DNA of 63,366 bases, filler included, from Octopus bimaculoides (GCF_001194135.2; 11 parts of 10 records of this genome joined end to end with filler, not necessarily neighbours in it), one strand, 5' to 3'. Positions 615 through 41,916 are shown, counted from the first letter of the whole stretch. Notes: generated by a model not told the origin, from the sequence alone. A program made the numbers and translations.

Positions 615-760
615 AAATTCTTTATTTTCACTCCTTGTTTCTTTCTGTGTTCCTTTCTCTGACAGAGCGTAGGCTCGAAACGCTAAAGACTTTTTCACTT
701 CCCGAGAGTTAAACTAGTACATCTCTTTGTTGTCTACACTACCTGTCTTTGTCTTTTTTT
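615..760 (+). mobile_element. Short repeat carrying a degenerate hammerhead-like motif (possible PLE-derived non-autonomous element)
   Basis: CTGACA-GAGC-GTAG-GCTC-GAAA-CG-CT-AAAGA at 659-689; perfect 4-bp stem II, core lacks GA and cleavage triplet is mutated. Confidence 0.4.
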
Positions 761-799
761 TTTTTTTTTTTTTTTTTTTAATTCTCCCTACATAATTCT

Positions 800-1010
800 C
801 CCTTTGAAATACAGGTACAACAGAAACAGGAACAGTGAGAGAAAGTTGTGATGAAAGAATACAGCAGGGTTCGTCACCACTCCTTGCCGGAGCCTCGTGG
901 CGCTTTAGGTGTTTTCGCTCAATAAACACTCACAAAGCCCGGTCTTGGAATCGAAGTCGCGATCCTACGACTGCGAGTCCGCTGCCCTCACCAGTAGGCC
1001 ATTTCTCCAT
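800..1010 (-). mobile_element. SINE family C (tRNA-derived head)
   Basis: Minus strand TGGCCTACTGGTGAGGGCAGCGGACTCGCAGTCGTAGGATCGCGACTTCGATTCC with A/B boxes; body matches 31254 and 56162. Confidence 0.8.
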
Positions 1011-1908
1011 GTATATGTGTGTGTGTTTGTCATTAAATTAATTTCAAATGTATGTAGACTACCACCTCAGTTCACCCAAAGTGAATGAAGCCTGGAATCA
1101 AGAATCAGGTGAGTATTCCAAACAAGTAAGATATAGCATATTTTTTTTTATATCGAAACGTCAGAGCATCGTATAATATTTGCGTCTCAGTATCCCAGTC
1201 TATTTTTCTTGGAGCGTGATTCCATACTAAAACAAAGACATAATTTTCTCAGATGTCCAACAGTGAGAAATGTTTAGATTGAATTCGGAAACCACTCTCA
1301 AAATATTAAATGGACATAGAAACTTATTGAAAGAGAGGAATTATTGGCATAAAGTCTGAATCCAAATAACAAAATATAACTGTGAGAATTACTAATTTTC
1401 GAAATGTTTAGTAACATAAAACCTTGCATTTCCCAGTGTTAGGAAAGAAACCTGGGAAAATTGGGAAATGGTTTATTAAAACTGTTGAGAACATATAACT
1501 GTTGATGCAAGAGCATCTCAGCAACGTATCAAGGAACGATATTATATTTCTCCTCCAGTACAAAATGTATGTATTCAGCTGATGACTTCTATTGTTCATC
1601 ACAAACTGTTTTACAGCATTCATTCATAAATTTACACACTTTGACCGCCTGTAATGTTCAAGCCAGTACCTAACAGTTTGAGAGAAAATAGCAGAAACAT
1701 TTCTCATGTCAATAATAGGTGAAAGCAATTTTCATAATAGACTCTTGAATTTATCCACTAAAAAGAAAACTATACAAACACAAGAGAGAAGTAATTTTGG
1801 TTTCGTCTTTATCTGACACTTATGTATTATTTGAATTATTTCCTCTTTCTTGGTCCCACAGAAAGGACATAGTTTCATAATCCTAGCATCCATATTAATT
1901 CGTTCTAT

Positions 1909-1910
<2 letters not shown>

Positions 1911-2006
<96 letters not shown>

Positions 2007-2015
2007 TGTATGTAC
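1911..2015. repeat. (TA)n then (TATG)n compound microsatellite
   Basis: Direct reading. Confidence 0.95.
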
Positions 2016-2392
2016 GTATGTATCTATATATAGCTATGGAAGCAATGACGGAACGTGAAAGTGAAAACAAAAACAGAAAATGCAATTTAAGAATATTACA
2101 TTTCAATCTATAAAACTGGAAGATGACTACTAAGAGCTTTTCAATCAATGTTGATCTGAGTTTAACCATTATCAGAAACAGTGCGAAGGAAAAGATTATT
2201 CACACCATCTTGAATCAAACATATCAAGGGCTCTATCTTTCAAATCTATTCTAAACTTTATTTCTAACCCTGGGAATCTTAGTAGTCAATAAGCGACCAT
2301 GGTATGGATGAAATAAAATGAAATCACTTTTCAACGGTTTAAGACTGCCATTTGTAAAAGCAACGGCAGATATTTATATAATCATTTCTGCT

Positions 2393-2597
2393 GGTGGCAT
2401 AGAGCCTCAAATTTGTGGGGAGGGAATAGCCGATTACATTGATCCCAGTGTTTCACTGGTACTTAATTTATCGACCCCGAAAAATCGAATAGCAAAGTCG
2501 ACCTCGGTAGCATTTGAACTCAGAACGTAAAGGCAGACGAAATGCCGCTAAGCATTTCGCTCGGCGTGCTAACGATTCTGCCAGCTCGCCGCCTTTC
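2393..2597 (-). mobile_element. SINE family B
   Basis: Minus strand GGCGGCGAGCTGGCAGAATCGTTAGCACGCCGAGCGAAATGCTTAGC...GTTCTGAGTTCAAAT...GGTCGACTTTGC...GGGGTCGATAAATTAAGTACCAG; many copies in window. Confidence 0.85.
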
Positions 2598-3245
2598 AGA
2601 TAGTTTAAATAATGGTGGAAATATACTGGCAAATCTAAAGATTCTACTTGAATATTCAAACGTAAATCCGATCAATCGAAAATTATGAATGCTAACTATG
2701 CTTGTGCTGGCAAAGAGGTTCAGCCTATAAACCAACCACAAGCCTAATCTCATAATTATTATAATTCACGGTCCTTTAATTCTATTTTAAAAGAAAGCAC
2801 CTATGTAATCAAGTCAATTAATTTCTGGAAATTTATTTCATGAGCTTTGTTGCATAGCGACGTCGAATCACGGTTAGCTACACATCAACAGAATGAAAAA
2901 AGGATTCGTATGAATAAAAAGAGGCGCTGAATGTTTCGTCCATGTGATTAGTGTGATCGTAGTTTTTTTTTAGTTTGTTTAACTCGAATCTTCTCCTGCA
3001 ATACACGATCAGCTATTAGCAGTGTAGGTACGAATTAGAGATGTTTCATTTAGCTTTGATTATCCGTAGTAGTGATGGCCGCACCCCAACTAATATTCGT
3101 TTCGTTTGAAAAAAAACTTTCCAGAGAACCTACCAGTGCTCCGGAGTCATAACAGTATTGGTTCGCTGTTGTCATTAGCCAGCTCCAAAAACTCAGTACC
3201 ATTTTCAAAATGCTTACTTCACGAATTCGTTTATCAATACACTGG

Positions 3246-3298
<53 letters not shown>

Positions 3299-3347
3299 GA
3301 ATGAGTGGGTTGATGGACGGATGGATGGATAGGTAAATAGATATATA

Positions 3348-3430
<83 letters not shown>
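3246..3430. repeat. (GATA)n, (TA)n, (GA)n compound microsatellite
   Basis: Direct reading. Confidence 0.95.
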
Positions 3431-3433
<3 letters not shown>

Positions 3434-3694
3434 AATACATACGCAGAAACATACATACATGCATGCATACAAACATACATACATCCAAGACCTATGAGAG
3501 GTGAATACAGTTATTGAAGCACTTGCTATCCTCAGGTATACGGCCGTATCACACATTTCTTAACATCGTAATAATCTCAGCATGGAAGAAACTATGTTTA
3601 TAATTTTGCATTAATATGCATGCTTGGTACTATTCATTACAATTGTGTATTTTCAAAATCTCTGAACGAGAAACATTCAGTAACTGTACCCCAG

Positions 3695-4098
3695 AGTAAA
3701 GATATTTGCCAACATAATGTGGCAATCAATGGTTACGACGAATGTTACTGCTATTTAACCACAGGAAACATCGTCACCAGCTGGCTGTCGACACACTGTT
3801 TCCGTCCTTATATTTTCAAACAAGGCAGTTAAGTGTCCCCGCTCAGTTCTAAAACAATATATGTGTACCAATGATTTCTGGGTTATTTCTGTGCTGATGA
3901 AGCGAAATAACCTAGAAACCATTGGTGCACACATATTGCTTTAGAGCTGAGCGGGGACACTTAACTGCCTTGTTTGAAAATATAAGGACGGAGATAGTGT
4001 GTCGACATACAGATGGAGATGATGTTTTCTGGGGTTAAATAACAGTAACATTCATCCTAACAATGACTGCCACATTATGTTGGTAAATAATCTTTACT
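3695..4098. repeat. ~400-bp foldback (long inverted repeat), probably a palindromic non-autonomous element
   Basis: Arms ~3695-3889 and ~3904-4098 are reverse complements with scattered mismatches; 14-nt loop; 42-bp piece recurs at 6695-6736. Confidence 0.9.
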
Positions 4099-4837
4099 GT
4101 ATATTTTCAAATCCATACAAATAAAGCTAGCTGGTCAGATGACAAGAACATCATGGATACAGCATCCATTTAACTCTAAGTATTCATACAAATGTTGTTG
4201 TACTTGGGGATGGTCATATTGCCAGTTTAGCCAATAAAAACACACGCACTGTATATTTGGTGTTAATTTACTTCAGCTTTATATTACATCTGTTTCAACA
4301 CACGATTTCACATCAAAAATCTTGCAAAACAAATATGTAAATGGAATATTCATACAAAGTTTTCTCTTTATTAATCACATAAAATTATCTTGGTTTGGTG
4401 AATAAAAACAAGATATTTTCTTTCATATCAATTAAGGCGGTAGATGTAGATTAAAGGAATTCAACATATTTAATGTTAGCAAATCAGGAAGGATTAAAAG
4501 GAGAGCGTAAGTTGTTAAGGTAAATATAAAAAAAAATATATTATATAATGTATAAAATAAAAGTAAAAATATAAATAAATTACTGGCGAACAGAGAGATG
4601 GAGATATATGAAGATTAAACCAAGAGATTGTATTGAACAACAATGAACTACAAATAGTGTTATTAGGTCAAAGAACTTCATTAACATAATACTGACCTAT
4701 AAATTTTAATCATATTTTCCAACCACACTTTGAAATTCCTTCTAGCCCATTGAACTATAGCAAAACTTAAATCCTACACACACATACCGAGAAGCAACTG
4801 CACAGAAGCATGAAGATAATTATCTTTTCTACTGAAG

Positions 4838-5300
4838 GTGCAAGGCCTTGAAATTTGTTGGGAGGAAACTAGTTGATTACACCGACTCCAGTGTTTCATT
4901 GGTATTTTATCGACCCTGAAAGGATGAAAGGCAAAGTCGACCTTGGCGGAATTGAACTCAGAACGTAGAGGCAGACAAATTACTGCTATACATTTCGCCT
5001 GGCGTGGTAATGTCTCTTATTTCTTTATTGCCCACAAGGGGCTAAATATAGAGGGGACAAACAAGGGCAGACGAGGGGATTAAGTCCATTTCATCGGCCC
5101 CAGTGCGTAACTGGTACTTAATTTATCGACCCCGAAAGGATGAAAGGTAAAGTCGACCTCGGCGGAATTTGAACTCAGAACGTAACGGCAGANNNNNNNN
5201 NNTCGACCTCGGCGGAATTTGAACTCAGAACGTAACGGCAGACGAAATACTGCTAAGCATTTCGCCCGGCGTGCTAACGTTTCTGCCAGCTCGCCGCCTT
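4838..5300 (-). mobile_element. Two adjacent SINE family B copies
   Basis: Two successive matches to family B (about 4838-5010 and 5012-5300); the second contains a duplicated segment around a 10-N gap. Confidence 0.8.
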
Positions 5301-5413
5301 AAGCACATCCATACACACGTACACACTCACACCCATGTGTATACGTACAGACTGCACAGAGACATACTTTTGCGTGTTTATGAATATAGGTAAAAATACA
5401 TACACACACACAT

Positions 5414-5444
<31 letters not shown>

Positions 5445-6541
5445 CATACATAATACATGTACACATATTTATAAATACATATACAAGCATGTGTAAATAT
5501 ACGAATACATATATGTGTGTGTGCGCGCGCGTGTGTATATGTGTATTTCTTGGACAGTATTAAGTTATACAGGAAGCCCATACACTGTTATATTTTGCTA
5601 TTGTCCAATAAATGTCTGTGTTAAAGCTGAGGTTGTGTTGACCACAGATTCACTTATGGTCTCATTATTTCGTCTTATTGATAATTGCAATGATGACATG
5701 GTGAGGATTGTGATGGTGCGTCGAAGAAAGCAATGAAAGAAAATGACATGGGTTAATGGTGATTATTTGACAATAAATTCTTTCCTTCAAATATTCTGTG
5801 GATATTTATAATTTGTTATTTGTTAGAGTTTTGTTTTACAAAAAGCCGCTTTGCACGTGCGACGACGTATCGTCTCAACAATTCTTAGAATACAATATAT
5901 CTAAGCTGTGATGATACCTTAGATATAAATATTATTTCTACTTAAAACATAATCGTAAGAAATTTATTCATCGTGAATTTTCTTTTTCTCTTAAAACAGT
6001 AACGTAATCTATTTCTTAAGTGAATAGCTAAAATGTTTTGAAAATATTGAGGAGTGGCGAGTGGCGATTGATATTACTGACTACACAATGCATTAAAATA
6101 TACCATTGTTTCTAAATCCTCTTATATTGGTAAATTACAAATACACTGCAATTGCATTACTAATATAATAAGAAAATATTCCAGATAATTAAAAACATCC
6201 ATATAAATTTGTTTTGTTTCTTATGATGCTTTTCTGCCATGAATGCTTCCAACGTTGACAAAAATATGCTGATGCTTACAATATATTAAACCTGTTGGAT
6301 ACATATAACCTATTTTCATTGGCTTTGAAGTGGTTGTTTTGATACGGTATCGTATTAAATCAATGATGTACTACAGTGTCAAATGGTCCTTGACGTCTAC
6401 ATTCTCTTTATCAAACGTCATTCGCCATTTCATTATAAAGTTCTGTAGGAACGAATCGTTTCTAGTCAAGTCGATGTCAATCACACGATGTTTCTAGTCC
6501 GTTTCATTCATTTCATAATTCTGTTTAGTCTTTCTCAATAG

Positions 6542-6575
6542 GGTGCGTATCTTCTTATTCACAATCAATGGACAG
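6542..6575 (+). CDS. Candidate small exon (unknown gene)
   Basis: Acceptor TTCTGTTTAGTCTTTCTCAATAG, donor CAG|GTACTG; open frames GAYLLIHNQWT or VRIFLFTINGQ; no homology recognised. Confidence 0.25.
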
Positions 6576-6694
6576 GTACTGCGCAGCCTCCCACGGGCGA
6601 AGAGGAAGACACTTTGTTTATAATTCCCCGATATTACAAGAAATTCTCCATTAGTATGACATATTCATAATGTAATTGTTATTCAAAGTGATTT

Positions 6695-6736
6695 ATCATT
6701 GGTACACAGATATTGTTTTAGAACTGAGCGGGGGAC
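6695..6736. repeat. Fragment of the 3695-4098 foldback family
   Basis: 41/42 identical to the reverse complement of 3834-3875. Confidence 0.85.
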
Positions 6737-7299
6737 AATTTCTGTGTAAGTATAACGTGTGGTATAACTTACAGCGATATTCTCACGCTATCTGATATGG
6801 AATGTACGGTAATCGATTGACTGCCAGCTTCAGTCATTGTAATTCGACCATGCTGGGGAAAACGTCGATACAAAGACTTCTTCAAACCTAGTATGAAAAA
6901 TGTAAGAATTATAATAAAACTACAAATTTATAATTTCCAGGAATCATGTAGACAAAATTGCTCAATGTGTCTATCCATTTTGTAGAGAATCCAAAAAAAA
7001 AAACGCACTCAATTGAAGCACGACTCAAAGGAAATATATACGTCGGTAAGCCTTTCAAATACTCTACTTGTTAGTGAGTTACTTATTTCTAAGGTTGTTA
7101 ATACTAACCACTTAAGGGGGCATGAATCAGCGTAAGTTTCACTCTTTGAACATACATGTTTGTTTATCATCTTTTAAATATCTTCTTGCAAGAGATCTTA
7201 AGAGAGTATTTGCACAAGTCTATTTCTTATAATTGAGAATTGCATCAAAGGAGACATATTTCTGTGAACGTTTCTCGTCACCCACTCGGTCAGTTTGAT

Positions 7300-7800
7300 A
7301 TTGTGTCTCTGCAGCTCATTACTAAACAAGAACGAAAGTCACAGGGGCGTGTCCGAGTGAAGTCGACCCCTGATCTCGGTGGTTGTAACAAATATTCAAA
7401 CTGTACACCCTGTAATACTTTTAGCTATCCGGAGCCGCACGCGCGCTACTCTGAAGATATCATCGTGTAACCTCTGAACCACATTCTGTGATACGGGCTG
7501 AAGCCTGGAACCAACCCCGTGAATGATGAATTTTCAGTAGGTGCGGTTCATCAGTTCGTGTCGATAACGTCCCTGCCCTTTCTACACACCGTCCGTCGCT
7601 ACTACTGGTTGCACGCTTCGATGCGGCCCTCAGCTCTAGCCGAAGAGCCTGTCTACTCGCGGCGGCGTTCCGCGCCGTCATCGACACCTTCCCTGCTGGC
7701 CCAGAGAACACGAGGAAACCCGATCGGTTACCGGAAACCAATACTTCGATTTTCTCTCCTGAGATCTGACTGTTTTCAACAATGGGTAAAGCATTTTGTC
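7300..7800. other. CpG/GC-rich island; candidate exon or regulatory region
   Basis: Markedly higher GC and CpG than flanks; three overlapping 80-113 codon open frames, none recognised. Confidence 0.4.
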
Positions 7801-8890
7801 CTCATGATGTATACATCAAGAGAAGGATATTGAGGGAATGCTTCAATAGATTCAGTCCTAGTCTCCATAGATTGCTGCATCGGTGAATCAAAGCGTTGAT
7901 GAATTAAAAATGTTTTAGTTTCACTTGATTACAGATTTTGAAAGCAAATTTTGGCCTAAAAGGACGGTGTTAGAGCCAACATTCCACACATCTCCCTGTC
8001 GCGATATTGTTTTGGAGGAAGTGTCCGTGTGTGGATATGTGGGGCCTTTACGCGAGTTTGTACATACTTCTTTAGTTCTTTAAAATCTATACTTTTGTAT
8101 TTGTATATGGTGACATGCATATGTGTGCGCATGTACCAGATACACAAAGAAAGACAGATTTTTAAAAACTGAATAAATATGTACATAATCGCATACACAC
8201 ACGTACACCAACGCGCTCACACATACATATACACTATCAAACATTCACGATAAAAAAAGGAAAATCAATTGTCAACCATCAAAAACGATGGCCAACGTAG
8301 AACCTTCATTTTTATCTACACAGGATAAAGTCCAGCGAACAAGGAATGCAGTTGTCGAGCGTAACAAAACCTGCAGTCTGAATACATTTTCTTTGAAATT
8401 CGTAGGAGCAAAATATACGACGCATGCAAAGTAGCAGCTTTAACATGCACAAACATGGCATATACCAACGATTTTAAATTACGGCTAATTATACTGAATA
8501 TAACAAGTGAAGCACACGGACATGTCACACATTGTGAATTCTGAACACCTTAAGAAAAATACAATTAAACGCTTTATAAATAATTACTTGAAATTGTTCA
8601 ACTTCAAAAGTCTCCCATGAAATTCTGCACAGAATAGAAAAAATGCTAATGACTAAATTAAGTTCATCCCGTAAATATTATCAACTTCACTCGCAATATG
8701 TACATCACTGAAACTACCTTGGAACCCAATTAACAGTAATTAAAAGAATAAGGTGACCATGTTTGTATCTTGCACTCTGTTTTCCAGTTTGTTCCCTCAT
8801 AATTTTTCTTTATCACACTACAACACAATGCACCACACATTTTAAAGTTTATGTTAATTTCACCATCCATATTTTCTATTCTTTATATCT

Positions 8891-8975
<85 letters not shown>

Positions 8976-9530
8976 TTTCCATCATTCCTCTTGTTTTAAT
9001 CTATTTTCTACCTACCTTCTTTCCACTCTAATTATCCTAAAAAGCCTTTACGTCTTCCCATGATTCTAATCTACGAATCACTTGATTATACTGTGACTCG
9101 TTTCCTTAAGGACCAACTCTAAATTATTCTCTCATTTACTTCAGGCATTAAATGTCGCACAATAGTCACTGGTTCGTTGCGATTTCTTTTCTCTTATTTA
9201 ATATCTTTCTTACCTTTGTCCTGTATTTTGCTAGTTTTCGTCTTACGAGTTAGTTTTCGTTGAATATAATATATAGATGTTTTCCTGTCTTGGAAAAGTA
9301 CTGGGCATGTCAAAGCTAGTGTACAGTTCTCAGGATTAAAGCGTCGAAGATACCGTCAACTTTAGTCAACAGCTAATGAAAGATTATAGTAACCTCGTTT
9401 TGTTTTTTGTTTTTTTATTTGTTTTTATCGAACTTGTGCATTTTATGAACTATGTGTTTTTTTCAGGACGCACACACACATACAAACATTTAGGCATATA
9501 ATGGCTCACTTAAATATGTGGTCATATAAA

Positions 9531-9612
<82 letters not shown>

Positions 9613-10170
9613 GTGTGTGAATGTAATGACTCAATAAAATGTGCAGCGGTTGAATACATGTCTACAAAACACGGTGTGATACTGTAGATTAGACGCTGGA
9701 TGAGGTGCTTGGTCAACTATATCGCTTTATAGACATCAGTTTCTCTATTTCAGGCCACTAAATGTAGTGACGTAAATACTCCAATTACAAGGAACCCAAA
9801 GTGTAAATGATTGAAAAATATTTCTTCATTTGTTACGAAATTCTATACGCCTTTATATGAATTTTATTTTGGGCCTTTTAAGTACAATAGCCGTCGTCCC
9901 TATGAACCAGCAGTATTCACAAATCGCGAATCTAAAATTACGGATGGAAAACACAAAAGAGAGTTATTTAATTTTAATTTCACATGTACATTATATTTAT
10001 CCAATACATATGATTAACGTTTAACAATTAAAATTACATTTCTATGTTCTTATATTGCCTTTTCTCTAAATTTTTGATACGATGACTTATTTATTGTACA
10101 GTGATATATTCCGACTAATGTCCTCCTTATCTTTGCTAGAGCCATGGAGGGATTGTTATCAATGGAGTTC

Positions 10171-10192
10171 CGACCACCTATAGGTTGGTCGA

Positions 10193-10289
<97 letters not shown>
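10171..10289 (+). repeat. Stem-loop plus (GAT)n tail, probable LINE/SINE 3' terminus
   Basis: CGACCA-CCT-AT-AGG-T-TGGTCG hairpin at 10171-10191 directly before (GAT)n 10195-10289. Confidence 0.45.
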
Positions 10290-13200
10290 CAGTCATATCG
10301 CTTTGATCGTACGTCTTTCTTTCTTTCGCCTTTGTCATACTCCGTATCGTTTTCAGAATTTCGGACCGAATAATTTATTAAACAAATGCGGGTACTTTTC
10401 TCTAACAAATTTCTTCTCCATCGGTGCTGTACCAGTTTCTTTTGATGATACCAATTAGAGAAATACATTTATTGCTTGATTAAATCGGGGACACGTCCAT
10501 TTGTAAACTTCTAAATCAAACACTTGATGCTAAAACAACATTTTTATTCACTCAGTTATATTGATATATAGCGGTTCTCTACACATTATATTTTCTGGTT
10601 TTGTACTATTTAGATTAATATGCTCATTTTAATAGGGGTACCCGTTTCTTTTCAGCAACATATTCATTTAGAATCAAAACCATTGTGTTCTGTTTGTTAA
10701 TGTTAGTGATTCAACAAAACTGCATCGACTGATTTCAGCAATGAGAGCTAAAGTATGTCTTGAAGATTTGGTAGAGCAGTGGCCTCTTAGGTTAGTTCAC
10801 TATTCTACTGAAAATGTATATTATGTGTTTCAACTGTGCGGGTCACATTTTATGTTATCAGGGATACTAAGGAAATTAGAAAACATATTCAGAATCAGTG
10901 AGTACAGACTAGCAACTAGTTATTGTATTTACTTTGTCATACACACCATTCATCATTATTTAATCGAATTTATATTATTCTAAAACATTACGTTTTCACA
11001 GAAAAGACATCTAATTTCGAATAAAAAGTTTGAATAAAATATGACAGATACAATATAATTTGAGATATTCTTTGAATTAAATGAGAACTGAACATATTTC
11101 TAGTATATTCCTTGTTTTGTAACTTTTAAATTAAATTTTCTTCCTCGAATATTATATTTTGTAGGTTGCCATTATGAAGTGAAACGAAAAGAAGAATAAA
11201 ATTCCTATATATCAGATAATGATTAAAAGTGAAATATGAACCAAAAAATGAAGACTGGAAAATAGTTTCCCTGCAGATATAGGTCTTTATTTAAAAAATA
11301 TAATTAAAATTATGTTTTAGATAATATTTTCCCACTTTTAGATTCTTGAATAGATGTAAAATTTGCCTGAAGAGAAACAACACTTCAGACGCGAAATTAG
11401 AAATACCGAATATCAGTTTTTAATCGGATTCTTTGAACTAAGGTAGACTTAGTTACTTTTGGGGATGAAGACGTTAATATATTTTTGTCAGATTTTGATT
11501 AAAGGAATTTCATGTATTTCACTCCGAACGACGTCTGCAGAAGTTCATTTTGCGCAAATGTTTTTAAGCGAATGTTCATTCATTAAACTGGAAAATGGGT
11601 TTCGGATGTAGCCTTCGTCCAATTTGAAAACGTATCGTTTCAAAGCTTAAAATGTATCATCGAAAATATCAATCACAAATGTTGACGTCATAGAATACGG
11701 GTCAAAATATCTTAGAAACATAATTTACAATGTCATTGTGAAGTAAAATAACGGAGATTTTTATCTCTTGATTTTATTATGTGTAGATGTCAGGAATATT
11801 TCATGTTAATAAGCTACAAAATTTAAAACGTTATATTTAAAATTTTTAAAAGGCCTAACTCATTATTATATTTTAGTCATATTAGTCTCCACTTATATAC
11901 TTAATATTTATATTCTTTCTAATGTTACACCATTTTCTATGCATCATACTCATAAATAGTGGAAGGCAGTTTGTAAAATATTTCGGAATATTAGACTTAC
12001 TGCAATGCTTATAAATTATTTCTGTACTACGTGTATATTTCCGTGTTAAGAACTCTTTTTACTGCCTTAACGGTTTCAACGTGTATATATATATATATAT
12101 ATATATATNNNNNNNNNNNNNNNNNNNNNNNNNNNNNNNNNNNNNNNNNNNNNNNNNNNNNNNNNNNNNNNNNNNNNNNNNNNNNNNNNNNNNNNNNNNN
12201 NNNNNNNNNNNNNNNNNNNNNNNNNNNNNNNNNNNNNNNNNNNNNNNNNNNNNNNNNNNNNNNNNNNNNNNNNNNNNNNNNNNNNNNNNNNNNNNNNNNN
12301 NNNNNNNNNNNNNNNNNNNNNNNNNNNNNNNNNNNNNNNNNNNNNNNNNNNNNNNNNNNNNNNNNNNNNNNNNNNNNNNNNNNNNNNNNNNNNNNNNNNN
12401 NNNNNNNNNNNNNNNNNNNNNNNNNNNNNNNNNNNNNNNNNNNNNNNNNNNNNNNNNNNNNNNNNNNNNNNNNNNNNNNNNNNNNNNNNNNNNNNNNNNN
12501 NNNNNNNNNNNNNNNNNNNNNNNNNNNNNNNNNNNNNNNNNNNNNNNNNNNNNNNNNNNNNNNNNNNNNNNNNNNNNNNNNNNNNNNNNNNNNNNNNNNN
12601 NNNNNNNNNNNNNNNNNNNNNNNNNNNNNNNNNNNNNNNNNNNNNNNNNNNNNNNNNNNNNNNNNNNNNNNNNNNNNNNNNNNNNNNNNNNNNNNNNNNN
12701 NNNNNNNNNNNNNNNNNNNNNNNNNNNNNNNNNNNNNNNNNNNNNNNNNNNNNNNNNNNNNNNNNNNNNNNNNNNNNNNNNNNNNNNNNNNNNNNNNNNN
12801 NNNNNNNNNNNNNNNNNNNNNNNNNNNNNNNNNNNNNNNNNNNNNNNNNNNNNNNNNNNNNNNNNNNNNNNNNNNNNNNNNNNNNNNNNNNNNNNNNNNN
12901 NNNNNNNNNNNNNNNNNNNNNNNNNNNNNNNNNNNAAATTAACTACCAACAATAATTGGTAAGCTAACTTAAAAAATCATCACCAAAATAGCAGAAAAAA
13001 ACGACAGTAATTGTGAAATTTTTTCGCCATGAACGGTTTGTGTTTTTAAACGGAATGTATTTTTTCTGACGTTATATCTGTTCCTGAATGATGTGTAAAG
13101 AAATTTTGATTTAAGCATCTTAATGAATTTTTTATACTGAAATATATATTGAAGAAGATAAATATGTTCTTTTGAATTTATACGTTTTTGCGTCGTAACT

Positions 13201-13447
13201 CCTTTATTATTATTAATATATATATATGTATATATATATCTTTATTTTTATTCTTATTTTTAATGAAGATATCTTAGAATTTGTATAATTAATTTGGATC
13301 CGTTAATAATAATAAAAAGAAAAATAGCCTGAGGACGCACTGGTGGATTTATGTATTGGGTATAGCCTGGTAAACAAACCAACAGGGCAGAAATACGTGT
13401 AGCGTTGATTAATATTATCTTCTTTGCCGACAAAGTAATAACAGGTA

Positions 13448-13723
13448 AGTTATATACATTATTTACATTATCTACATTTGACGGATATTCGTCCTCATCT
13501 TGTTTGTTGTTAACACAACGTTTCGGCTGATATACCCTCCAGCCTTCGTCAGGTGTCTTGGGGAAATTTCGAACCTGGGTTCTCATTCCTATCGATGTTA
13601 CTATTATTATTATTATTATTAATATTATATATTATTATTATTATTAATCAGGTCGCTGCCGTGAATCGAACTCGGAACCTTGGGGTTAGTAGCCCGCGCT
13701 CTTAACCACTACGCCATATGCCC
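13448..13723 (-). mobile_element. tRNA-headed SINE containing a hammerhead ribozyme
   Basis: Minus strand: tRNA-like head 13723-13651 (A box TGGCGTAGTGG, B box GTTCGATTC), (AAT)n spacer, HHR at 13557-13512, (AATGTA/GATAATGT) tail repeats. Confidence 0.75.
13512..13557 (-). ncRNA. Type I hammerhead ribozyme (minimal, dimer-type stem III)
   Basis: GACAC-CUGACGA-A-GGCUG-GAGGGUAUAU-CAGCC-GAAA-CG-UU-GUGUU: stem I GACAC/GUGUU, 5-bp stem II, palindromic ACGU stem III, GUU cleavage triplet. Confidence 0.85.
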
Positions 13724-13949
13724 GTATATATATATTTTTAAAAATATGTTTAAATAATTTTTAATTGATTCTAATGTACTTTATTTTATTGTACGTTATA
13801 GTAGGCTTTAAAATTATCATAATATTAGATTAGTATTTTGGATATAACTTTCTATGTGTCCTCCAGAAAATAAGGTTGTCCTGAAATTGAAGTTATCGTC
13901 TTATTGGTAAAATCCCAAATTTGTAATAATATTATATCTATATATATAT

Positions 13950-14192
13950 TCTTTATTTGTTTCAGTCATTTGACTGCGGCCATGCTGGAGCACCGCCTTT
14001 AATCGAACAAATCGACCACAGGTCTTATTCTTTGTAAGCCATAAGCCTATTACTTGTCCTGTCGGTATCCTTTGCCGAACTGCTATGCTACAGGGACGTA
14101 AACACACCAGCATCGGTTGTCAAGCGATGATGGGAGGACGAACACAGACACACAAATATATACATATATATATATATGTATATATATATATG

Positions 14193-14228
<36 letters not shown>

Positions 14229-14421
14229 AGTGTGTGTGTGTGTATGTGTGTGTGTATGTGTGTACGACGGGCTTCTTTCAGTTTCCGTCTACCAAATCCA
14301 CGCACAAGGCTTTGGTCGGCCTGAGGCTATAGTAGAAAACACTTGCCCAAGGTGCCACGTAGTAGGACTGAACACGGAAACATGTGGTTGTCAAGCAAGC
14401 TACTTACCACACAGCCCCTCC
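13950..14421 (-). mobile_element. SINE family A, near full length
   Basis: Head GGCTGTGTGGTAAGTAGCTTGC, CORE-like ACCTTGGGCAAGTGT, internal (TA/TG)n, tail GGCGGTGCTCCAGCATGGCCGCAGTCAAATGACTGAAACAA. Confidence 0.9.
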
Positions 14422-14546
14422 TATATATATATATATATATATATATNNNNNNNNNNNNNNNNNNNNNNNNNNNNNNNNNNNNNNNNNNNNTTAATTAATT
14501 AANNNNNNNNNNNNNNNNNNNNNNNNNNNNNNNNNNNNNNNNNNNN

Positions 14547-27321: not shown

Positions 27322-27466
27322 AGCGAGTGGCTTAATGGTTCGGGCATTGAACTCATGGTCGTAAGGTCGTGAGTTCAATTCCGGGCGATGCGTTGTGTCC
27401 TTGAGCAAGATACTTCATTTCAAGTTGCTCCAGTCCACTCAGCTGGCAAAAATGAGTAGTACCTGT
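27322..27466 (+). mobile_element. SINE family D (tRNA head plus CORE-like domain), runs into gap
   Basis: GTGGCTTAATGG A box, GAGTTCAATTCC B box, GTGTCCTTGAGCAAGATACTT. Confidence 0.75.
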
Positions 27467-27566: not shown

Positions 27567-28125
27567 GCTGTAGTTTATAACTGGGACAGCTAAAGTGTTG
27601 ATACCCATTATCTTGTTTTTAGCATTGAGCTCTGTTTTTAGTATTGATCTAACTCGTCTATACTACTCTTTCTTTATTTTTTCTTTCATTTGTGTATGTT
27701 GTATCCTATCTAGTTCATTGACTCCTAAATACTTGTATGGTTGGCTTTCGTCTAGTTCTCTTATTTCATTGGCTTTATCTAGTGTTATATTGCTACTTTT
27801 AACTAATTTTCCTCTTTTCAGGGTTGCTTTGGCACATTTTCCTAATCCGAAATTCATATCTATTTCTTTGGTCAAGCTGTGTACTGTCTGTAGTAATGTT
27901 CCTAGCTCTCTGTCGTTTTTAGCATATAATTTTAGGTCATCCATATATAGAAGGTGGCTGACTGTTTTTCCGTAGCATTTGTAACCGCATCCAGTTCTAT
28001 TTAGCAATTCAGTTAAAGGTGTGAGTACCAGGCAGAACAGGAGTGGAGAGAGCATGTCTCCCTGAAATATTCCTCTTCTAATGGGGATGGCTTTCGTTTT
28101 CACAACTCCCTCTTTTGTTTGGAGC
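27567..28125 (-). pseudogene. R4/Dong-clade non-LTR retrotransposon RT fragment, 5'-truncated
   Basis: RRGIFQGDMLSPLLFCL...SHLLYMDDLKLYAK...YKYLGV...E*YRRVRSILKTELNAKNKIMGINTLAVPVINYS; one in-frame stop; 3' part in gap. Confidence 0.85.

Positions 28126-28187
<62 letters not shown>
28126..28187. repeat. (TTA)n array abutting the Dong 5' junction
   Basis: Direct reading. Confidence 0.95.
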
Positions 28188-28188
<1 letters not shown>

Positions 28189-28565
28189 CCGACGGAATGA
28201 AGTTGTTTCTCTCCTCGTAAGTTAGTGGTCTCTTTTTGAGCAGTAATCTTAAAATAATTGCTTCAAAATTAATTTAATAAGTAAACAAATACGGTGAAAC
28301 CAGCATTGTTGTAGGCATAGAAGAGGAGGAGAGAGGTTTTTGAAATAGAGAGGTGCAAGATGCCGTACTGTCTTCAGCCTACTACTACTCACAAATAGAA
28401 GGGGATGCAAGTACACATGTTCCAATGCCCGCACACGAAATTGCAGACACGTCAAAAAATAATGCCAACAACTTTAGCGATATCACAAACTACGAAGCTG
28501 AATTCCCTCCAATTCAATGGAATACTCAAAAAAGCGCTCAGAGCAGCAGTATCAAGACCACTTAA

Positions 28566-30071: not shown

Positions 30072-30167
<96 letters not shown>
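30064..30167. repeat. (TTA)n array at the 3' end of the second Dong copy
   Basis: Direct reading. Confidence 0.95.
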
Positions 30168-31186: not shown

Positions 31187-31188
31187 AA

Positions 31189-31219
<31 letters not shown>

Positions 31220-31253
31220 ATTATTATTATTATATTACTACTACTATTATTGT

Positions 31254-32214: not shown

Positions 32215-32274
<60 letters not shown>

Positions 32275-35599: not shown

Positions 35600-36499
35600 G
35601 CTGATATCTGACATCTCACCAAATTTAAAATTTATGTATATATGTGTTAACTACACGTATGATTCGAATGCTGGTCTGTTGAAAAAAAACTGTTCCACAA
35701 AAACTGTTCGCCGGGAGTTACATAAAGCCGGATTTTACGAGAGAGTTGCAATCAGAGAACCGCTATTTCCCCCACCCCCACCCCCCGAAAAAAAAACTTG
35801 CAAACCGTTTAGAGTAGAGTAAAAGCCTACGTCTCTAGAACAGTGGAAGACTGTTATTTTCTTGGACGAGTCATCGTTTACCTTATTTTCGACCACCGGC
35901 CGAGTATATTGTACGGAGACAGCCAAAAGACGCATTTAACCCAGACTGTCTTCTTCCAACTGTTAAACATAGAGCAGGAGGATCTGCGATGATCTGGGGC
36001 GCTATATCTTGGAAATCCACCAGCCCAATGCTTTCCCGTTATGGCAGAATTAATAGTGAAGACTATTTAAGCATTTTCTCTCATAAAATTCATCCTAAGT
36101 TTGCGGAACTGTTTCCAGAGGGAAACGCAATCTTTCAGGATGATAATGCTCCAATTCACACAGCTAAACTTGTTGCTGAATGGCACGAGAAACATTCTAG
36201 TGTAGTTGAACATTTTATCTGGCCAACACAGTCACTAGCTCACAATATTTTAGAACATTTACGGTGTATTTTAGAGAAACAAGTAAGGAGTCGACATCCT
36301 TCACCATCGTCACTCCAAGAACTGAAGATTGTTTTAACTGAACAATGGACAGAAATTCCTTTGGAACCAATTCAAACTTTGTACGAGTCAATACCTCGTA
36401 GAATTCAAGCTGTAATTACTGCCAAAGGAGGTCCTACTCCATATTAAAATAAATTTGTTTGAACTTTTAAGTTTTTTTTTCCATTATTTTGTCCAACCC

Positions 36500-36502: not shown

Positions 36503-36535
<33 letters not shown>

Positions 36536-36636
36536 NNNNNNNNNNNNNNNNNNNNNNNNNNNNNNNNNNNNNNNNNNNNTTAATTAATTAANNNNNNNNN
36601 NNNNNNNNNNNNNNNNNNNNNNNNNNNNNNNNNNNG

Positions 36637-36838
36637 GACCGAACGTGTAATGTGGAAAGGTCTTGATAGGTGCCCATTGACGCGAACTATCGAACGGATG
36701 CCTTTGTACAAAGCAGCCATCCAGCCGCGGAAAATGGGACCGAAGCCGGCCGCTGTGAGGACAGCTTCCAAGTATTGATGGTCTACCCTATCGAAAGCTT
36801 TGGATTGATCCAAATTGATCAGGGCCCCACCCATGCCA
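36637..36838 (-). pseudogene. Tx1/L1-clade RT fragment, 5'-truncated
   Basis: GALINLDQSKAFDRVDHQYLEAVLTAAGFGPIFRGWMAALY...VNGHLSRPFHITRSV, then gap. Confidence 0.85.
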
Positions 36839-36849
36839 TAGATAGATAC

Positions 36850-37125
36850 ATTTCTTTTCTTAGCCACACAGGGCTCAACAAAGATGGGACAAATACAATG
36901 TAGAGCTTTTCTTTTTGGGAGGGGGAAGGGGGAAAAGTAGGGGGTGTCGATCAAAAGGGATCGTAGGAAGGAAAAAAGGGGGGAGTTCGATCAAAAGGGA
37001 TGGAGGAAAAAAATCGGATCAATAGGGTTCGTGTATCACAGTAATGTTCTCGTGTAAAAAGAGGAGGACAGTTTAGGTTTAGCTGTGGAATGAAAAGCCT
37101 ACGGAAAAGACCACGGTAACCTTGA
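36850..37125 (-). mobile_element. Probable LINE 3' UTR (Tx1-like) lying directly upstream of the RT fragment
   Basis: Pyrimidine-rich body with repeated CCCTTTTGATCGA, ends AAGAAAAGAAAT then TATCTATCTAT; assignment to Tx1 is inference. Confidence 0.45.
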
Positions 37126-37141
37126 TCAATATTGTCATTGT

Positions 37142-37191
<50 letters not shown>

Positions 37192-37849
37192 CGCAAGTAT
37201 GTAGAAGCTGTCTACGGCATATCCTAACAAAAACAAATATACTTATTCGCTCATGTGCATGCTCATCTACACATTCATGCAGTTTTGCTGAATACTGAAG
37301 TCCAAACCAAATTCATAGTCCATCGCCATCTTTAATTCTTCTCCATGTTCGTTCCGTCCTTGCTCTTCAACCTCTTCGCATCCACCCATCTATCCATCCA
37401 TTTCGCGCGCATTCGTACACTATTTCTAATCATCACTGCGTGCTCACCCACCATAAAATACTTGATTCAGTAATTCGAGTGTGCATGTAGTAGCTTTTAT
37501 TACATGAGTCATAGCCCTCATCCTATTAGGGCCAAAAATCTGTCTCACAGTTGTGACTGCGAAGCTTTTGACAACAACCTTCAATGTGGGCCGAATTTCC
37601 TCCCGGATATTGAAACTGTGGTCAAAATAAAGAAAGCGGAGAAGTTATAAACAAGCGAACCTCAAATTCACACACACACCCTTTTCTCCTCTACGTATAG
37701 ACATTGCAGTTGTATATATTTCATACATGACACATACATACATATATATATACACATGTGCATTCTTTCTTTAGCATACATACGCATGTTGCCTACACAT
37801 ACATTTCACACATATTGAGATCCTCGCTCATGCACACACACACGCATAC

Positions 37850-38197
37850 ACACAAACAAGCCACACATATACACACACACAAACACACACATACGTGTAC
37901 ACACATTCATGCACACACGCATTTTAAACACACCATTACACAATAATTCTCGCATACATGCACGCATGCTCACTACATACATCACACTGATACATACACA
38001 CCACCACACAAACACACTCACACACACATTCATACACACACAAACACACATTCACAAACATAGACGCATTTTAAACATACCATTACACAATAATTCTCGC
38101 ATACATGCACACATACTCGCTACATACATCACACACATACACACACATACACATGTACAACACACACATACACACACGCGTGCATGCACCACACACA

Positions 38198-38250
<53 letters not shown>
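37850..38250. repeat. (CA)-derived repeat with 147-bp internal duplication
   Basis: ACGCATTTTAAACA...CATTACACAATAATTCTCGCATACATGCAC at 37917 and 38064. Confidence 0.8.
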
Positions 38251-38251
<1 letters not shown>

Positions 38252-38351
38252 NNNNNNNNNNNNNNNNNNNNNNNNNNNNNNNNNNNNNNNNNNNNTTAAT
38301 TAATTAANNNNNNNNNNNNNNNNNNNNNNNNNNNNNNNNNNNNNNNNNNNN

Positions 38352-39933
38352 CCGGAGAGAAAGGCCACTGTACACAAGAACAAAATCCCAAAGGAGAGGT
38401 AAATTCTTATGAGACGGCATACGAGAGTTTCAAATCGCCTAAACAAACAAATTGAAAGCAGTGAAAGGTCCCGCCTGAAAATACAACTGCTGGAGACTGA
38501 AAAAATCTGCAACTCTCCCATGAAAAAGAAAGAGCAGACAAAGAAGTCTGGGCTATAGACAATAGAAAATCTAACCCCAGAGCTTTCTACAAGTTTGCCA
38601 AAGAAACAGCCTCAGTGCACTGCAGGATAGGGCCACTCCTCGAAAAAGATGGTACACTCATAGGAAACCCAATGAGGATAAGTGAATTACTAAATGAGCA
38701 ATTGAAAAGTATTTTCACTCCACCCCTAGGGCACTTTCAAGTCAGCAATCCAACTGACTTTTTTACCACTGCAGATATAAAAAGAGGCAATGATGATTGA
38801 CAACATCAATATAAAGGAAGACGATGTAATAAGGTATATAGATGAAATGAACCCAAACTCAGCTACTGGCACACATGGATTCCCAGCAATCTTTCTAAAA
38901 GTATGTAAGCAAGTCTTAGCAAGACCACTGCAGTCCCTCTTTCAGAGCTTAAGAAAACTGAAGGAGGGTAAAATATGCCCTATTCATAAAGGAGGTAGCA
39001 GAGCAGAGGCCAAGAACTACAGACCTATCTTTCTGACCTCGCACATCAGCAAGGTCATGGAGCGAATAGTCAGAAGAAAACTAATCGCCTTCCTTGCTGC
39101 CTGACACCCAACATGGTTTCCAACAAGGAAGAAGCTTCCTGACTTAGCTCTTACAACACTATGACTGGGTGCTGAAACAGCTGCTCAACCACTCAAATGT
39201 CGAAGTGATATATATCGACTTTGCAAAGGCCTTTGATAAAGTCGATCATGGAATGATATGTCACAAGTTGCGTGATCTCAGCATAGTTGGAAAATTGGGA
39301 ATATGGCTTCATGACTTTCTGAAGGATAGAAGTCAGGTGATAGTAGCCAATGGGGCCACCTCCAATGACATGCAAATAGTGAGCAGTGTTCTGCAAGGCA
39401 CTGTTATGGGACCACTACTGTTCAAAATGGCCCTCTCAGACATGCCCTCAGCCACACACAGCCACGATCACAAGTTATGCAGATGATACAAAAGTCTCAC
39501 AGGTAATACAGAACCCTGGATGTGAGCTGGATGAAATATACAAGTGTGCTGAAAAGAATAGCATGCAATTTAATGCTGAAAAGTTTCAAGACTTGTGCTA
39601 TCAGCATGCAAAACGAAATGCAATACCCATTAAATACACTGGACCTGGAAGGATTGCAATCCCAGAGGCACAGTCAGTGCGAGACTTAGGCATTTACATG
39701 AGTAATGATGCATCCTTTCTTGTGCATGTTGCTAAATTGGCAATGAAATGCAGGTGGCTGACTGAATGGATTCTTAGAAATTTTAGAACAAGAGATCAGG
39801 AAACTATGATGGTCCTCTGGAGGACACTTGTCCTAAGCCACTTTGACTATTGCTCTCAGCTATGTTCACCAACCAGTGTCAAATTAATCTCAGAACTTGA
39901 GGCAATCTAATGAAGCTACACAAAGAAGATAGC
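38352..39933 (+). pseudogene. CR1-clade LINE ORF2 (RT) fragment, multiply frameshifted
   Basis: NYRPIFLTSHISKVMERIV, QHGF, YIDFAKAFDKVDH, QGTVMGPLLF, YADDTK, QFNAEK, VRDLGI, DYCSQL. Confidence 0.9.
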
Positions 39934-40572
39934 CTCGCCCGTATGTTTTTGCTTCGCTAAATTTTTTCTTTGAGAAATTTTCAGTGATCTTCTTCTAGCA
40001 CATTAGCAGTCCATTTAGTGGTCTCTTTTATATATACATACATATACAATAATCCTTTTGAGATCTCAGAAAAATTTTTTTCTGAATCTTTTGATTCTTT
40101 TAATGTGCTGGTTTCCTGGTATTAAATTGATATTAATTAATATCCAATTTTTTACCCTACTATTTTAATTAACCATAATCACGTTCTCAAAGTTGGTAAA
40201 TTTGATGCAGAAATTATTTTCTGCAGAAATATTTCGCATTTTGCGCACCAAAACTTAAGACTTTTGAATATTTCTCTATATAATTAATAGAACCATGTGC
40301 ACGTTTTTCACTCGTTGGGGAACAGCTAGTACACGATTCTAAGAATTATATTTCTATGGCAGTCCGTACTGAGGAGAAACAGATATTTTTGGTAAGAAAG
40401 TATTGATTTCGAAACCATGGTCTACAGATAACCTTATATTCATTTCTATAATTTTCACTCGTCTCGCCTCTATGTTTTTGCTTAGCTAAATTTTGTCTTT
40501 GAGAAATTTTCCGTGATTTTCTTCTAGCACATTAGCAGTCCACTTAGTGGTCTCTTTTATATACATACATAT
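39934..40572 (+). repeat. Penelope-like pseudo-LTR region: partial tandem direct repeats
   Basis: ~110-bp direct repeat at 39934-40045 and 40463-40572 directly upstream of the PLE ORF, with an HHR between the copies. Confidence 0.75.
40363..40428 (+). ncRNA. Type I hammerhead ribozyme in the PLE pseudo-LTR
   Basis: UCCGUA-CUGAGGA-GAAA...UUUC-GAAA-CCAUGG-UC-UACAGA: stem II GAAA/UUUC, palindromic ACCAUGGU stem III, GUC triplet, stem I 5/6 paired. Confidence 0.8.
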
Positions 40573-40586
40573 ATGGCTAACCTTCT

Positions 40587-41916
40587 TTGATAACAAGAAT
40601 GATCAACAAAAACACAAGGATTCAACTTCGGATTTTAAAAAAACTATTCAAATCCAAAAACTACCTACCACCAAACCCGAAATTAAAACAATTTGAAGAT
40701 CTTTGGTCAATAGTGAAAGATGTGAAGTTCCATAAATCACCATTAAGAAATAATCACCTCAGATACCTCAACAACATAATGAAAGAAATCAATAACATTG
40801 ATGGAATACTAGTTAAGTCCGATAAAACAGGAAACATGTATAAATTATCCAAGGAACATTATAACGAATTACTCAAAAGAGAAATAGAAAAAAACTGCCG
40901 AATCACAAGTAAAACAGCACTTAGGAAAGCTAACCTGGAAGCAAAACAAATCATGGAGAAATATAACTTACAAAAGAGGACTGAACCTTTGAACCCTAAG
41001 CAACCTCGATTTGTTTTAAAGGACCACAAGAAAAACTTTTGGAGTAGTCCCAAATTATGTCTTATCTGCCCATCTAAATCGGACATAGATATTCTCAGTA
41101 AAAACATACTAGACAAATATATACCTACTTTAGTCAAAAAATTAAAACTTTGTTTGTGGTCAAACTCATTACAAGTAGTAGATTGGTTTCGTAACATTAA
41201 TGACAAACATAACACTAAATTTATCCAGTTTGATATATCTTACTTTTATTCCTCAATTAACCCCATTATATTAAACAAAGCACTCTGGTTTGCTCACAAT
41301 AAGGCGGGTCTTTCTAGAGAGGAAATTAAAGTTGTTACAGCAGCCAGAAATTCTATTATTAAATTCAATAATAAACTATGGACACGTAAGGACACTCCAG
41401 ATGGATTTGACGTCCCTATGGGAAGCTCCGACTCAGCACAAATAGTTGACCTGGTCTGCACATACATTCTATATGAATTAGAAGACCAATTCCCAAACAT
41501 TAAGGGTGGTCTATACCGGGACGATTGTTTACTTTATCTAAATAATACCACAAACCAAAAAATACAAAAAGTTAAAAATAGACTAGCCAGATTTTTCAGT
41601 AGAATGGGTTTTAGTATAACCTTTGAAGACGAAACATCCATAGCCAATTTCCTAGATGTAACTCTAGACCTACACGCAAAAACCTTCTTCCCTTACCACA
41701 AACCCTCCACTAACCTTAAATACATTAGGAAATTCAGTAATCATCCTAATTCGGTAACAAGAAATTTAGTTAGGAACATTTCACTTAGATTATCAAATTT
41801 ATCCACAAATGAAAATATTTTCAATAAGGAAGCTGACTTTTACAACTCTGCTTTATTAAAAGCAGGATATAGAGAAAAAGTTAGTTATATTAATTCCACT
41901 TATGAAATCGATACCC
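40587..41916 (+). CDS. Penelope-like element reverse transcriptase (likely Naiad-type); C-terminus/GIY-YIG lost in gap
   Basis: 443 stop-free codons; SDKTGN, LKDHK, FIQFDISYFYSSI, FDVPMGSSD, GLYRDD, NFLDVTLDL, SNHP motifs. Confidence 0.9.

Follow-up and report, generated by a model that had tools for sequence, protein, structure and literature searches.

Hammerhead ribozymes in the ends of Penelope-like elements (PLEs), solo hammerhead stubs and hammerhead-bearing retrozymes have all been described, and Hydra elements are known from octopus. The Hydra clade of PLEs with a C-terminal endonuclease, as set out in the accessible part of Craig et al. (2021, PMC8557442), includes Hydra-1_Obim from Octopus bimaculoides. 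In the available text of Cervera and de la Pena (2014, PMC4209133), the features of minimal PLE hammerheads are listed and solo copies out of truncated PLEs are already described. Among metazoan non-LTR retrozymes solo monomers are common, and mobilisation dependent on PLEs has been proposed in print in 2020 (Cervera and de la Pena, PMC7229834) and in 2026 (Li, Clavereau, Pollet, bioRxiv 10.64898/2026.07.22.740005); PLE-driven retrozyme mobility is the standing hypothesis, and the idea is not new. The accessible part of the 2026 preprint samples no molluscs. In vitro, insertion could do without the hammerhead in one PLE; in print, trans-mobilisation has yet to be tested directly and what the ribozyme does has yet to be settled.

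The stretch of O. bimaculoides DNA analysed here (the window, 63,366 nt) consists of 11 pieces set apart by ten N44-TTAATTAATTAA-N44 spacers, so that the span 654-41916, presented in the preliminary description as one candidate system, is not one locus. Among the hammerheads, which we name by position, 40363 alone lies on the same piece as a reverse transcriptase (RT). We consider it probable that the window holds a broken Hydra-clade PLE with a sense hammerhead just upstream, together with three other hammerhead-bearing families, which likely descend from several different PLE lineages as 5'-truncated ends or as derivatives without genes (Table 1). This reading starts from features observed directly, namely the motifs, the RT type, the position of the hammerhead, the fold-back layout and the TA-run flanks. 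The other hammerhead repeats carry PLE-type marks of their own: insertion at TA runs, an inverted 5'-truncated copy and palindromic stem III. Insertion into (TA)n is seen in the loose ends at 40152-40171 and in the 47218 and 57114 elements, which adjoin TA runs.

Table 1. Positions of the hammerhead, Penelope-like and associated features in the window
Feature	Position	Strand	Particulars
Possible decayed hammerhead	654..689	+	4-bp hairpin before GAAA only; fold z +1.0
Fold-back, 404 nt, from two 5'-truncated 47218-family copies placed head to head	3695..4098	.	arms 86% complementary; homology to 47218
Fragment of the 3894/47218 family, 39 nt, begins at stem III	6695..6733	+	97% identical to 3837-3875
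Minimal PLE-type hammerhead (13512)	13510..13559	-	A inserted before stem II, G-C closure, 6-bp stem II, ACGU palindrome in stem III, GUU; predicted cut after 13517
tRNA-like head	13651..13723	-	A box 13716-13706, B box 13671-13663; 5' of (AAT)n run and 13512 hammerhead, same strand
Partial tandem of non-coding end	39934..40573	+	self-BLAST: 39934-40046 recurs at 40463-40573, 92%
Type I hammerhead (40363), palindromic stem III ACCAUGGU, long stem II	40362..40429	+	35 nt between core boxes; predicted cut after 40422
RW-motif region, remnant of the RT open frame	40574..40646	+	translation, profile; frame differs from RT; weak alone, E 0.049
Open frame, RT and thumb of Hydra-clade PLE	40581..41916	+	first ATG 40599; motifs, profile, fold
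Second Hydra-clade element, heavily decayed	45450..46620	3' part -, RT part +	head-to-head pieces; five profile matches, E 1e-5 to 0.03; tblastn
Solo non-coding element, about 246 nt, between two TA runs (47218)	47180..47425	+	hammerhead 47217-47263, predicted cut after 47256; terminal hairpin
Fourth type I hammerhead, well-formed (57114)	57114..57203	+	59 nt between core boxes; stem II base UUGC/GCAU, Hydra-type; predicted cut after 57197

The open frame encodes an RT that is telomerase-like and belongs to the Hydra clade. It carries the motifs DKT, FDVPMG, YRDD and NFLDVTLD, and it matches positions 67-484 of 714 in a profile built from 41 full-length relatives (E 2e-118), colinearly and without a long insertion, an N-terminal nuclease or a fingers insertion. 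Searches of Pfam (RVT_1) and of PDB sequences did not recognise an RT, but fold comparison did: the top five Foldseek matches of the AlphaFold model (pLDDT 81.5) are all telomerase RT (E 3e-9 to 3e-8). The change of DKG to DKT, read in the window as SDKTG, is shared by most relatives, with DKT in 34, DKS in seven and DKG in none of the 41. The copy is nevertheless damaged at both ends. The RWK motif is present in 31 of 41 relatives, and the W of the window copy lies in another frame; the frame breaks near 40637 and the upstream frame stops at about 40514. Two contigs carry a normal F-I-N-Q-V-R-W just 5' of the RT frame (loose end at 40582) and read V-R-W-I. At the other end the frame is cut by the spacer at 41917, and the linker and GIY-YIG nuclease part, represented in the relatives by CxCX5C (39/41) and Y[IV]G (35/41), are missing. 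A profile search of 40047-40361 found no C-terminal coding remnants. The window copy thus lacks a complete single frame with RT and nuclease and, with its 5' end broken and its 3' end cut, is not established as autonomous, the term used in the preliminary description. We also considered 40463-40573 as a coding N-terminus and rejected it, given the weak profile match (E 0.049), stops in both repeat copies and the differing sequence of other contigs.

Type I hammerheads also lie in short non-coding units, namely 47180-47425, 3695-4098 and the 57114 region, and the first two of these are related. The flanks and stems of the hammerheads had been described as unrelated to one another; an alignment of 3894 with 47218 covers about 220 nt, with 140 of 193 columns identical (about 72%) and a score of 127.5 against a shuffle maximum of 80. 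Five of the six stem I pairs are kept between them, three through two-sided change, and on these grounds we treat them as one family. In the centre of its fold-back member, on the right arm, lies a decayed hammerhead (3888-3933) whose cleavage triplet reads GUG and whose stem II is weakened; the left arm has only the 3' half of a hammerhead (GUA). The arrangement agrees with the inverted, 5'-truncated layout described for PLEs. The homology to 47218 led us to reject the reading that 3729-4064 is a DNA-transposon MITE whose core arose by chance.

It is possible, at somewhat less than even odds, that the 47218/3894 family represents a genuine non-LTR retrozyme: tandem arrays elsewhere would be transcribed, cut and closed into circles that serve a PLE RT as templates, leaving solo and fold-back offspring in the window. 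The family is non-coding, its stem I shows covariation between two copies that share about 72% of their sequence, and up to about 75 nt lie 5' of the cut site, as copying across a circle junction would leave. However, uncut linear RNA accounts equally for that extension, and no tandem unit is present in the window, where no hammerhead stands in tandem with a second one; the name 'retrozyme system' given to these repeats earlier finds no support in the window. This reading overlaps with a PLE-derived origin of the stubs, and the two differ in the RNA intermediate.

The 13512 hammerhead is of another kind. It fits the published list for minimal PLE hammerheads (PMC4209133, in the part available), with an extra base between 9 and 10.1, G10.1-C11.1, palindromic 15.2-16.2, a short helix I and a long helix II. 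The type is rare among the Hydra relatives, where a 2-nt stem III spacer occurs in one of 51 cores. Its pattern found no match in viral contigs. The tRNA-like head beside it is one of two A/B-box pairs in the window; it scores 14.3 bits (E 1.1) against Rfam tRNA, below the gathering score, and ARAGORN at default settings reports no tRNA there (a relaxed run, with 74 matches, is not discriminating). The candidate SINE, 13723-13460, has one copy in the window, at which neither a target duplication nor an inverted end was found. We tentatively suggest that 13512 may be a tRNA-promoter SINE with a Penelope terminal repeat as its tail, and therefore carried by a Penelope enzyme and not by a LINE. 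Taken with the TA-targeted 47218/3894 and 57114 elements, it would make this genome host to several RNA parasites of unrelated sequence, which end structure would assign to distinct PLE helpers. If true, such families would form a ready panel for tests of trans-mobilisation and of RNA recognition by PLE RTs.

The hammerhead next to the RT was compared with those of relatives, in which 63 hammerhead matches fall in 50 of 78 loci, all 63 in sense orientation, 31 before and 32 after the open frame. As the preliminary description stated, 40363 lies directly upstream of the RT frame, on the sense strand and 205 nt before the first RT-family residue (W). Its stem II region, at 35 nt, exceeds the 10-29 nt of the relatives, one doubtful match at 35 aside. 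In other contigs stem III is shorter yet still palindromic with the fold kept, and at 40390 94-97% of contig depth has C in place of U, so that a U.G pair in the long arm becomes C-G. Among the relatives 13 of 14 pairs covary, a count that is partly circular because the rows were selected for pairing. We think it likely that 40363 is the own end of the RT frame.

Less likely, in our judgement, is that 40363 belongs to an abundant non-coding, TA-ended repeat inserted beside an unrelated 5'-truncated RT fragment. W stands unusually near the hammerhead (205 nt versus 243-354 in 24 relatives) and TA-rich sequence joins the two; the hammerhead could then stand at the head of a stub of its own, next to a truncated frame. 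Just 5' of W other contigs diverge. The GCTC..GAGC hairpin that 37 of 46 relative cores have 36-56 nt past the cut is absent at that place from all elements of the window. Relative contig depth is 858-13,477 in the bins of the open frame, 18,674 in the hammerhead bin and 249,152 in the end region; 40092-40152 is very abundant, and the depth profile and loose ends, which at 40152-40171 enter TA repeats in DNA and RNA runs alike, show other copies continuing from there into (TA)n. A rise in depth toward the end, with copies running into (TA)n, is what is expected of 5'-truncated copies. Against a separate repeat, the strand and side of the hammerhead are right, the partial tandem has the layout described for pseudo-LTRs, and the bin immediately 5' of the hammerhead has a depth similar to that of the frame (2,931). 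Over the 40363 region, one RNA run (6%, depth 3-8, uninformative) listed neither a pile of cleaved ends nor a back-joint at the predicted cut. No RNA data set was listed as containing the PLE stretch, a result that says nothing about its expression.

It seems to us improbable that the RT at 40581 acts autonomously and mobilises every hammerhead family in trans. RT and families do co-occur in one genome, the frame is open over 439 codons with an intact YRDD, and Hydra-like marks appear at 57114 and 47218 (stem II base, TA flanks). However, the N-terminal part lies in another frame or is lost, the nuclease is not seen, the pieces of the window are not contiguous, and the minimal 13512 motif is of a type rare among the relatives. 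The families also have no end sequence in common: among 21 pairs compared, only two exceed shuffles, 3894 with 47218 and the region of 40363 with the repeat upstream of it, and we found no sequence that the RT-linked end has in common with the other hammerhead families in the window or with the 78 relative loci. To these other families no parent frame is linked.

We regard the hammerhead motifs, four well-formed and one worn, as real parts of short repeats whose cutting is predicted from sequence. The three well-formed type I cores reported earlier (40363 and 47218 with GUC, 13512 with GUU) were recovered by a descriptor scan, under which 200 dinucleotide shuffles gave one core in seven cases and more than one in none (mean 0.035). 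Allowing a wider stem II added a fourth, the overlooked 57114 (GUA), which is also the top match of our Hydra hammerhead model R1 (30.5 bits, E 3e-6) and is followed after 42 nt by an N gap flanked by TA runs. Of two degenerate cores proposed, 3894 stands as a decayed hammerhead, with its matching GAAA at 3915-3918 and not at 3904-3907. The other, 654-689, is not confirmed: its core has one surplus base, its stem I pairs poorly, and it is absent from the descriptor scans and from the 11 covariance-model matches in the window. That the cores are chance matches within AT-rich repeats is extremely improbable, with four found against 0.095 expected (shuffle maximum two; none of 200 reaches three), compensatory changes and a position that agrees with relatives, set against fold energies no better than shuffles (z-scores near zero), R1 scores for 40363, 47218, 13512 and 3894 (E 0.3-4) no higher than those of probable chance matches, and no Rfam hammerhead family in two focused scans or among the 150 of 230 matches listed, which are microRNA-type and microsatellite-driven. 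Chance, if it applies at all, may be restricted to 654-689.

As to mechanism, and following published PLE work, the PLE protein of an intact copy elsewhere would nick AT-rich DNA. Reverse transcription would then begin at an RNA structure near the element end and mostly stop early, leaving short hammerhead-keeping stubs, often next to an inverted second stub. The hammerheads would cleave transcripts that are long or tandem, and would likely do so as dimers joined by the palindromic stem III; in three of the four cores self-pairing of the stem III segments amounts to -8.8 to -11.2 kcal/mol, and the active fold lies 5-9 kcal/mol above the best monomer fold. Judging from window copies that reach 5' of the cut site, insertion can probably do without cutting.

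To the described systems the window adds new families, two hammerheads with long arms (35 and 59 nt between core boxes) and a candidate repeat with a tRNA-like head and a Penelope tail. It provides templates for a trans-mobilisation test, without an intact enzyme.

Compared with the available accounts of known systems, 13651-13510 is like the Schistosoma Sm-alpha / Sj-alpha SINE-like elements as a suspected tRNA-related hammerhead repeat (Copeland et al. 2009, PMC2770079); it differs in a ribozyme of minimal PLE type and in a link between head and ribozyme that is seen in one copy. The short non-coding units with type I hammerheads resemble metazoan non-LTR retrozymes (PMC7229834), but the window, known here from sequence, shows no tandem units that each carry a hammerhead. 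With the minimal hammerheads of metazoan PLE terminal repeats (PMC4209133), 13512 shares the extra base, G10.1-C11.1, short stem I, palindromic 15.2-16.2 and solo occurrence; unlike them it has a tRNA-like head upstream and no linked parent frame, and its helix II has 6 bp versus 7-8 in the S. mansoni families. Relative to the published Hydra clade, the window copy is broken and has no downstream hairpin; its RT family differs from Hydra-1_Obim in motif blocks compared by eye, and six short window motifs were not found in the searched part of the PMC8557442 supplement. Common to both are DKT, a divergent RT block, colinear RT and thumb, TA-run ends and a canonical hammerhead with palindromic stem III, in the window likely that of the frame itself, and the stem III of 40363 resembles that of the published Hydra-1_Obim.

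The hammerhead-bearing repeats of the window are real, ordinary members of already known kinds. What is established here is the presence of the hammerhead motifs, the type of the reverse transcriptase (RT) and the layout. Ten spacers (N44-TTAATTAATTAA-N44) split the window into 11 pieces; each spacer is 100 nt long, the ten sites run from 14447 to 62265, and stops occur in every frame. The spacers are probably artificial joins between unrelated pieces, so adjacency across a spacer would not be genuine. Motifs are named below by their start positions.

Pieces and further features of the window
Feature	Position	Strand	Remark
Piece	1-14446		carries 654, 3894, 13512
Piece	38352-41916		carries 40363 and RT
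Piece	43955-47710		carries 47218
Piece	47811-62165		carries 57114
tRNA-like Pol III head	13651-13723	-	A/B-box pair, one of two in window
Second A/B-box pair	27328-27381	+	
RT fragment, LINE-type	27663-28262	-	
RT fragment, LINE-type	36580-36990	-	
RT fragment, LINE-type	38781-39910	+	stops just 5' of the Penelope partial tandem
DDE_3 (Tc1/mariner-type) transposase fragment	35839-36447	+	E 6e-7
Second, old Hydra-clade element	45450-46620		head-to-head fragments; ~560 nt from the 47218 element

A descriptor scan recovered exactly the three type I cores named by the preliminary description, while 193 of 200 shuffles held zero cores and 7 held one. Once a longer stem II was permitted, a core at 57114-57203 was gained, and 182, 17 and 1 of 200 shuffles held zero, one and two cores. 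This well-formed plus-strand hammerhead had been overlooked; its core boxes are 59 nt apart, against a maximum of 35 nt among 51 cores from relatives (metagenome loci with Hydra-clade Penelope-like elements, PLEs). Of 11 matches in the window to a covariance model trained on 41 hammerheads from these relatives, 57114 ranked first (E 3e-6), with 13512, 47218, 3894 and 40363 at E 0.3-4 among six probable chance matches; the hammerhead previously proposed at 654 was absent from all 11. No hammerhead family was among the matches listed in Rfam scans of the window, and the motifs folded no better than shuffles. The case for hammerheads is made by the core with its three stems, by position and by covariation.

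Pfam gave no RT match for frame 40581-41916, yet the top five structural matches of its model (pLDDT 81.5) were all telomerase RTs, and its RT marks are the Hydra marks reported by Craig et al. Among 41 full-length relatives, RWK was seen in 31, DKT in 34, DKG in 0, the linker in 39 and Y[IV]G in 35. The sole named relative is an Octopus sinensis protein (64% identity, 97 residues), by which the window, animal DNA made up of repeats, is likely from an octopus. The first 97 residues of this protein, P0021, are a Hydra-type RT thumb, and its name, 'myb-like protein I', is likely a mis-annotation. Hydra-1_Obim, an octopus element in the supplement of Craig et al., was judged by eye to belong to a different family from the window RT. 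The element had been called an autonomous PLE, but the window copy is broken: the RT profile match begins only at position 67, the W-motif stretch is in a different frame with a stop 5' of it, and the 3' end of the ORF is cut off by a spacer. A base missing at 40637 is a minority state (2, 1 and 2 contigs, 2-19% of depth), and a normal F-I-N-Q-V-R-W stands 5' of 40582 in two contigs.

The hammerhead does lie 5' of the PLE RT ORF as first described, the 40363 core being 205 nt before the W motif in the same piece. The region is a partial tandem (39934-40046 recurs at 40463-40573) with a single hammerhead, and contigs from three DNA runs span all 30 bins. In run X1, summed depth rose from 858-13,477 over the ORF to 18,674 in the hammerhead bin and 249,152 in 40064-40130; it was 175 in 40237-40255. 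From ~40152 other copies continue into (TA)n. This depth gradient, which is not a copy number, is consistent with many short 3' stubs for each copy that has the ORF. The short core at 40092-40152, which has a (TA)n end, is much more widely shared among contigs and RNA reads than the sequence on either side, where both neighbours have diverged, and is likely the common end of sister subfamilies. Within 40 of ~400 variant rows, 40390 is C in most copies, turning a U.G of the long arm into C-G, and stem III is shorter with its palindrome kept in at least 12 contigs. One RNA run, of which 6% was read (331 reads, 249 of them <90% alike), listed neither a pile-up of ends nor a back-joint at the cut; with a depth of 3-8, this carries little weight.

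Across the 78 relative loci sampled, we found 63 hammerhead matches in 50, all on the sense strand (31 5' and 32 3' of the ORF), a few of which belong to neighbouring elements. Core-to-RWK distance was 243-354 nt in 24 of the 31 upstream matches, compared with 205 in the window; in the seven left out, RWK was not called or the core was a second, more distant one. A palindromic stem III was near-universal, and stems covaried at 13 of 14 pairs against 0 of 500 shuffles, in part because the rows had been picked for their pairing. A GCTC..GAGC hairpin lies 36-56 nt 3' of the cut in 37 of 46 cores with sufficient flank (shuffle mean 0.35). It is missing at the equivalent place in every window element, which argues against a simple Hydra identity of the element tails. 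As GCTC-loop-GAGCAC it occurs in L001, L003, L005, L007, L078 and other loci, often with a second copy just 5' of the start codon, and is a candidate signal for the RT.

The flanks of the hammerheads had been thought unrelated, but 3894 and 47218 belong to one family: ~220 nt of 47218 can be aligned to the right-hand arm of the fold-back at 3695-4098 (score 131.5 vs a maximum of 66 in 1000 shuffles; identity 140/193 columns). In stem I, 5 of 6 pairs are kept, three via two-sided change, in a comparison of two sequences only. The right arm has GUG as its cut triplet, which is not cleavable under the NUH rule, and the left arm has GUA without the 5' core. Both arms share their 3' endpoint with 47218 and break close to the hammerhead, an arrangement reported for PLE copies that are inverted and 5'-truncated. 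TA runs flank 47218 on both sides. All copies except the 39-nt 6695 fragment extend ~20-75 nt 5' of the predicted cut, so that the template would have been uncut or circular RNA.

The 13512 motif conforms to the minimal PLE hammerhead as presented by Cervera and de la Pena 2014. It is directly preceded, on the same strand, by a tRNA-like head and an (AAT)n run; the head has both an A box and a B box, and its Rfam tRNA match is weak (E 1.1). No tRNA-headed, PLE-tailed octopus repeat was found in the literature, most subscription papers excepted. Minimal hammerheads like 13512, with the extra A, a GGC..GCC stem II and a stem III that contains CG, also occur at L004:2080-2130 and L027:312-355, near Hydra elements of other marine animals.

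A Poseidon PLE protein is reported to nick AT-rich DNA and to begin reverse transcription within its own RNA, and hammerhead mutants inserted equally well (PMC11167929). We suggest that the window repeats could have arisen by this published PLE route, with intact helpers elsewhere; that the hammerheads differ in type points to at least two lineages of helper. Stem III self-pairing (-11.2, -8.9 and -8.8 kcal/mol for 40363, 47218 and 57114) and a costly active monomer fold (5.0, 4.9 and 9.4 kcal/mol, respectively) fit predicted cutting as dimers. Minimal hammerheads are described as cutting weakly, as dimers (Cervera and de la Pena 2014), and Li et al. 2026, whose stated sample of 35 genomes holds zero molluscs, report cutting in only 1 of 9 dimers. 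The Sm-alpha repeat of schistosomes, as described, is a precedent for a SINE-like repeat with a hammerhead. PLEs have been put forward as the strong candidate helper of retrozymes (Cervera and de la Pena 2020), and Li et al. 2026 make the case that retrozymes derive from PLEs and are non-autonomous.
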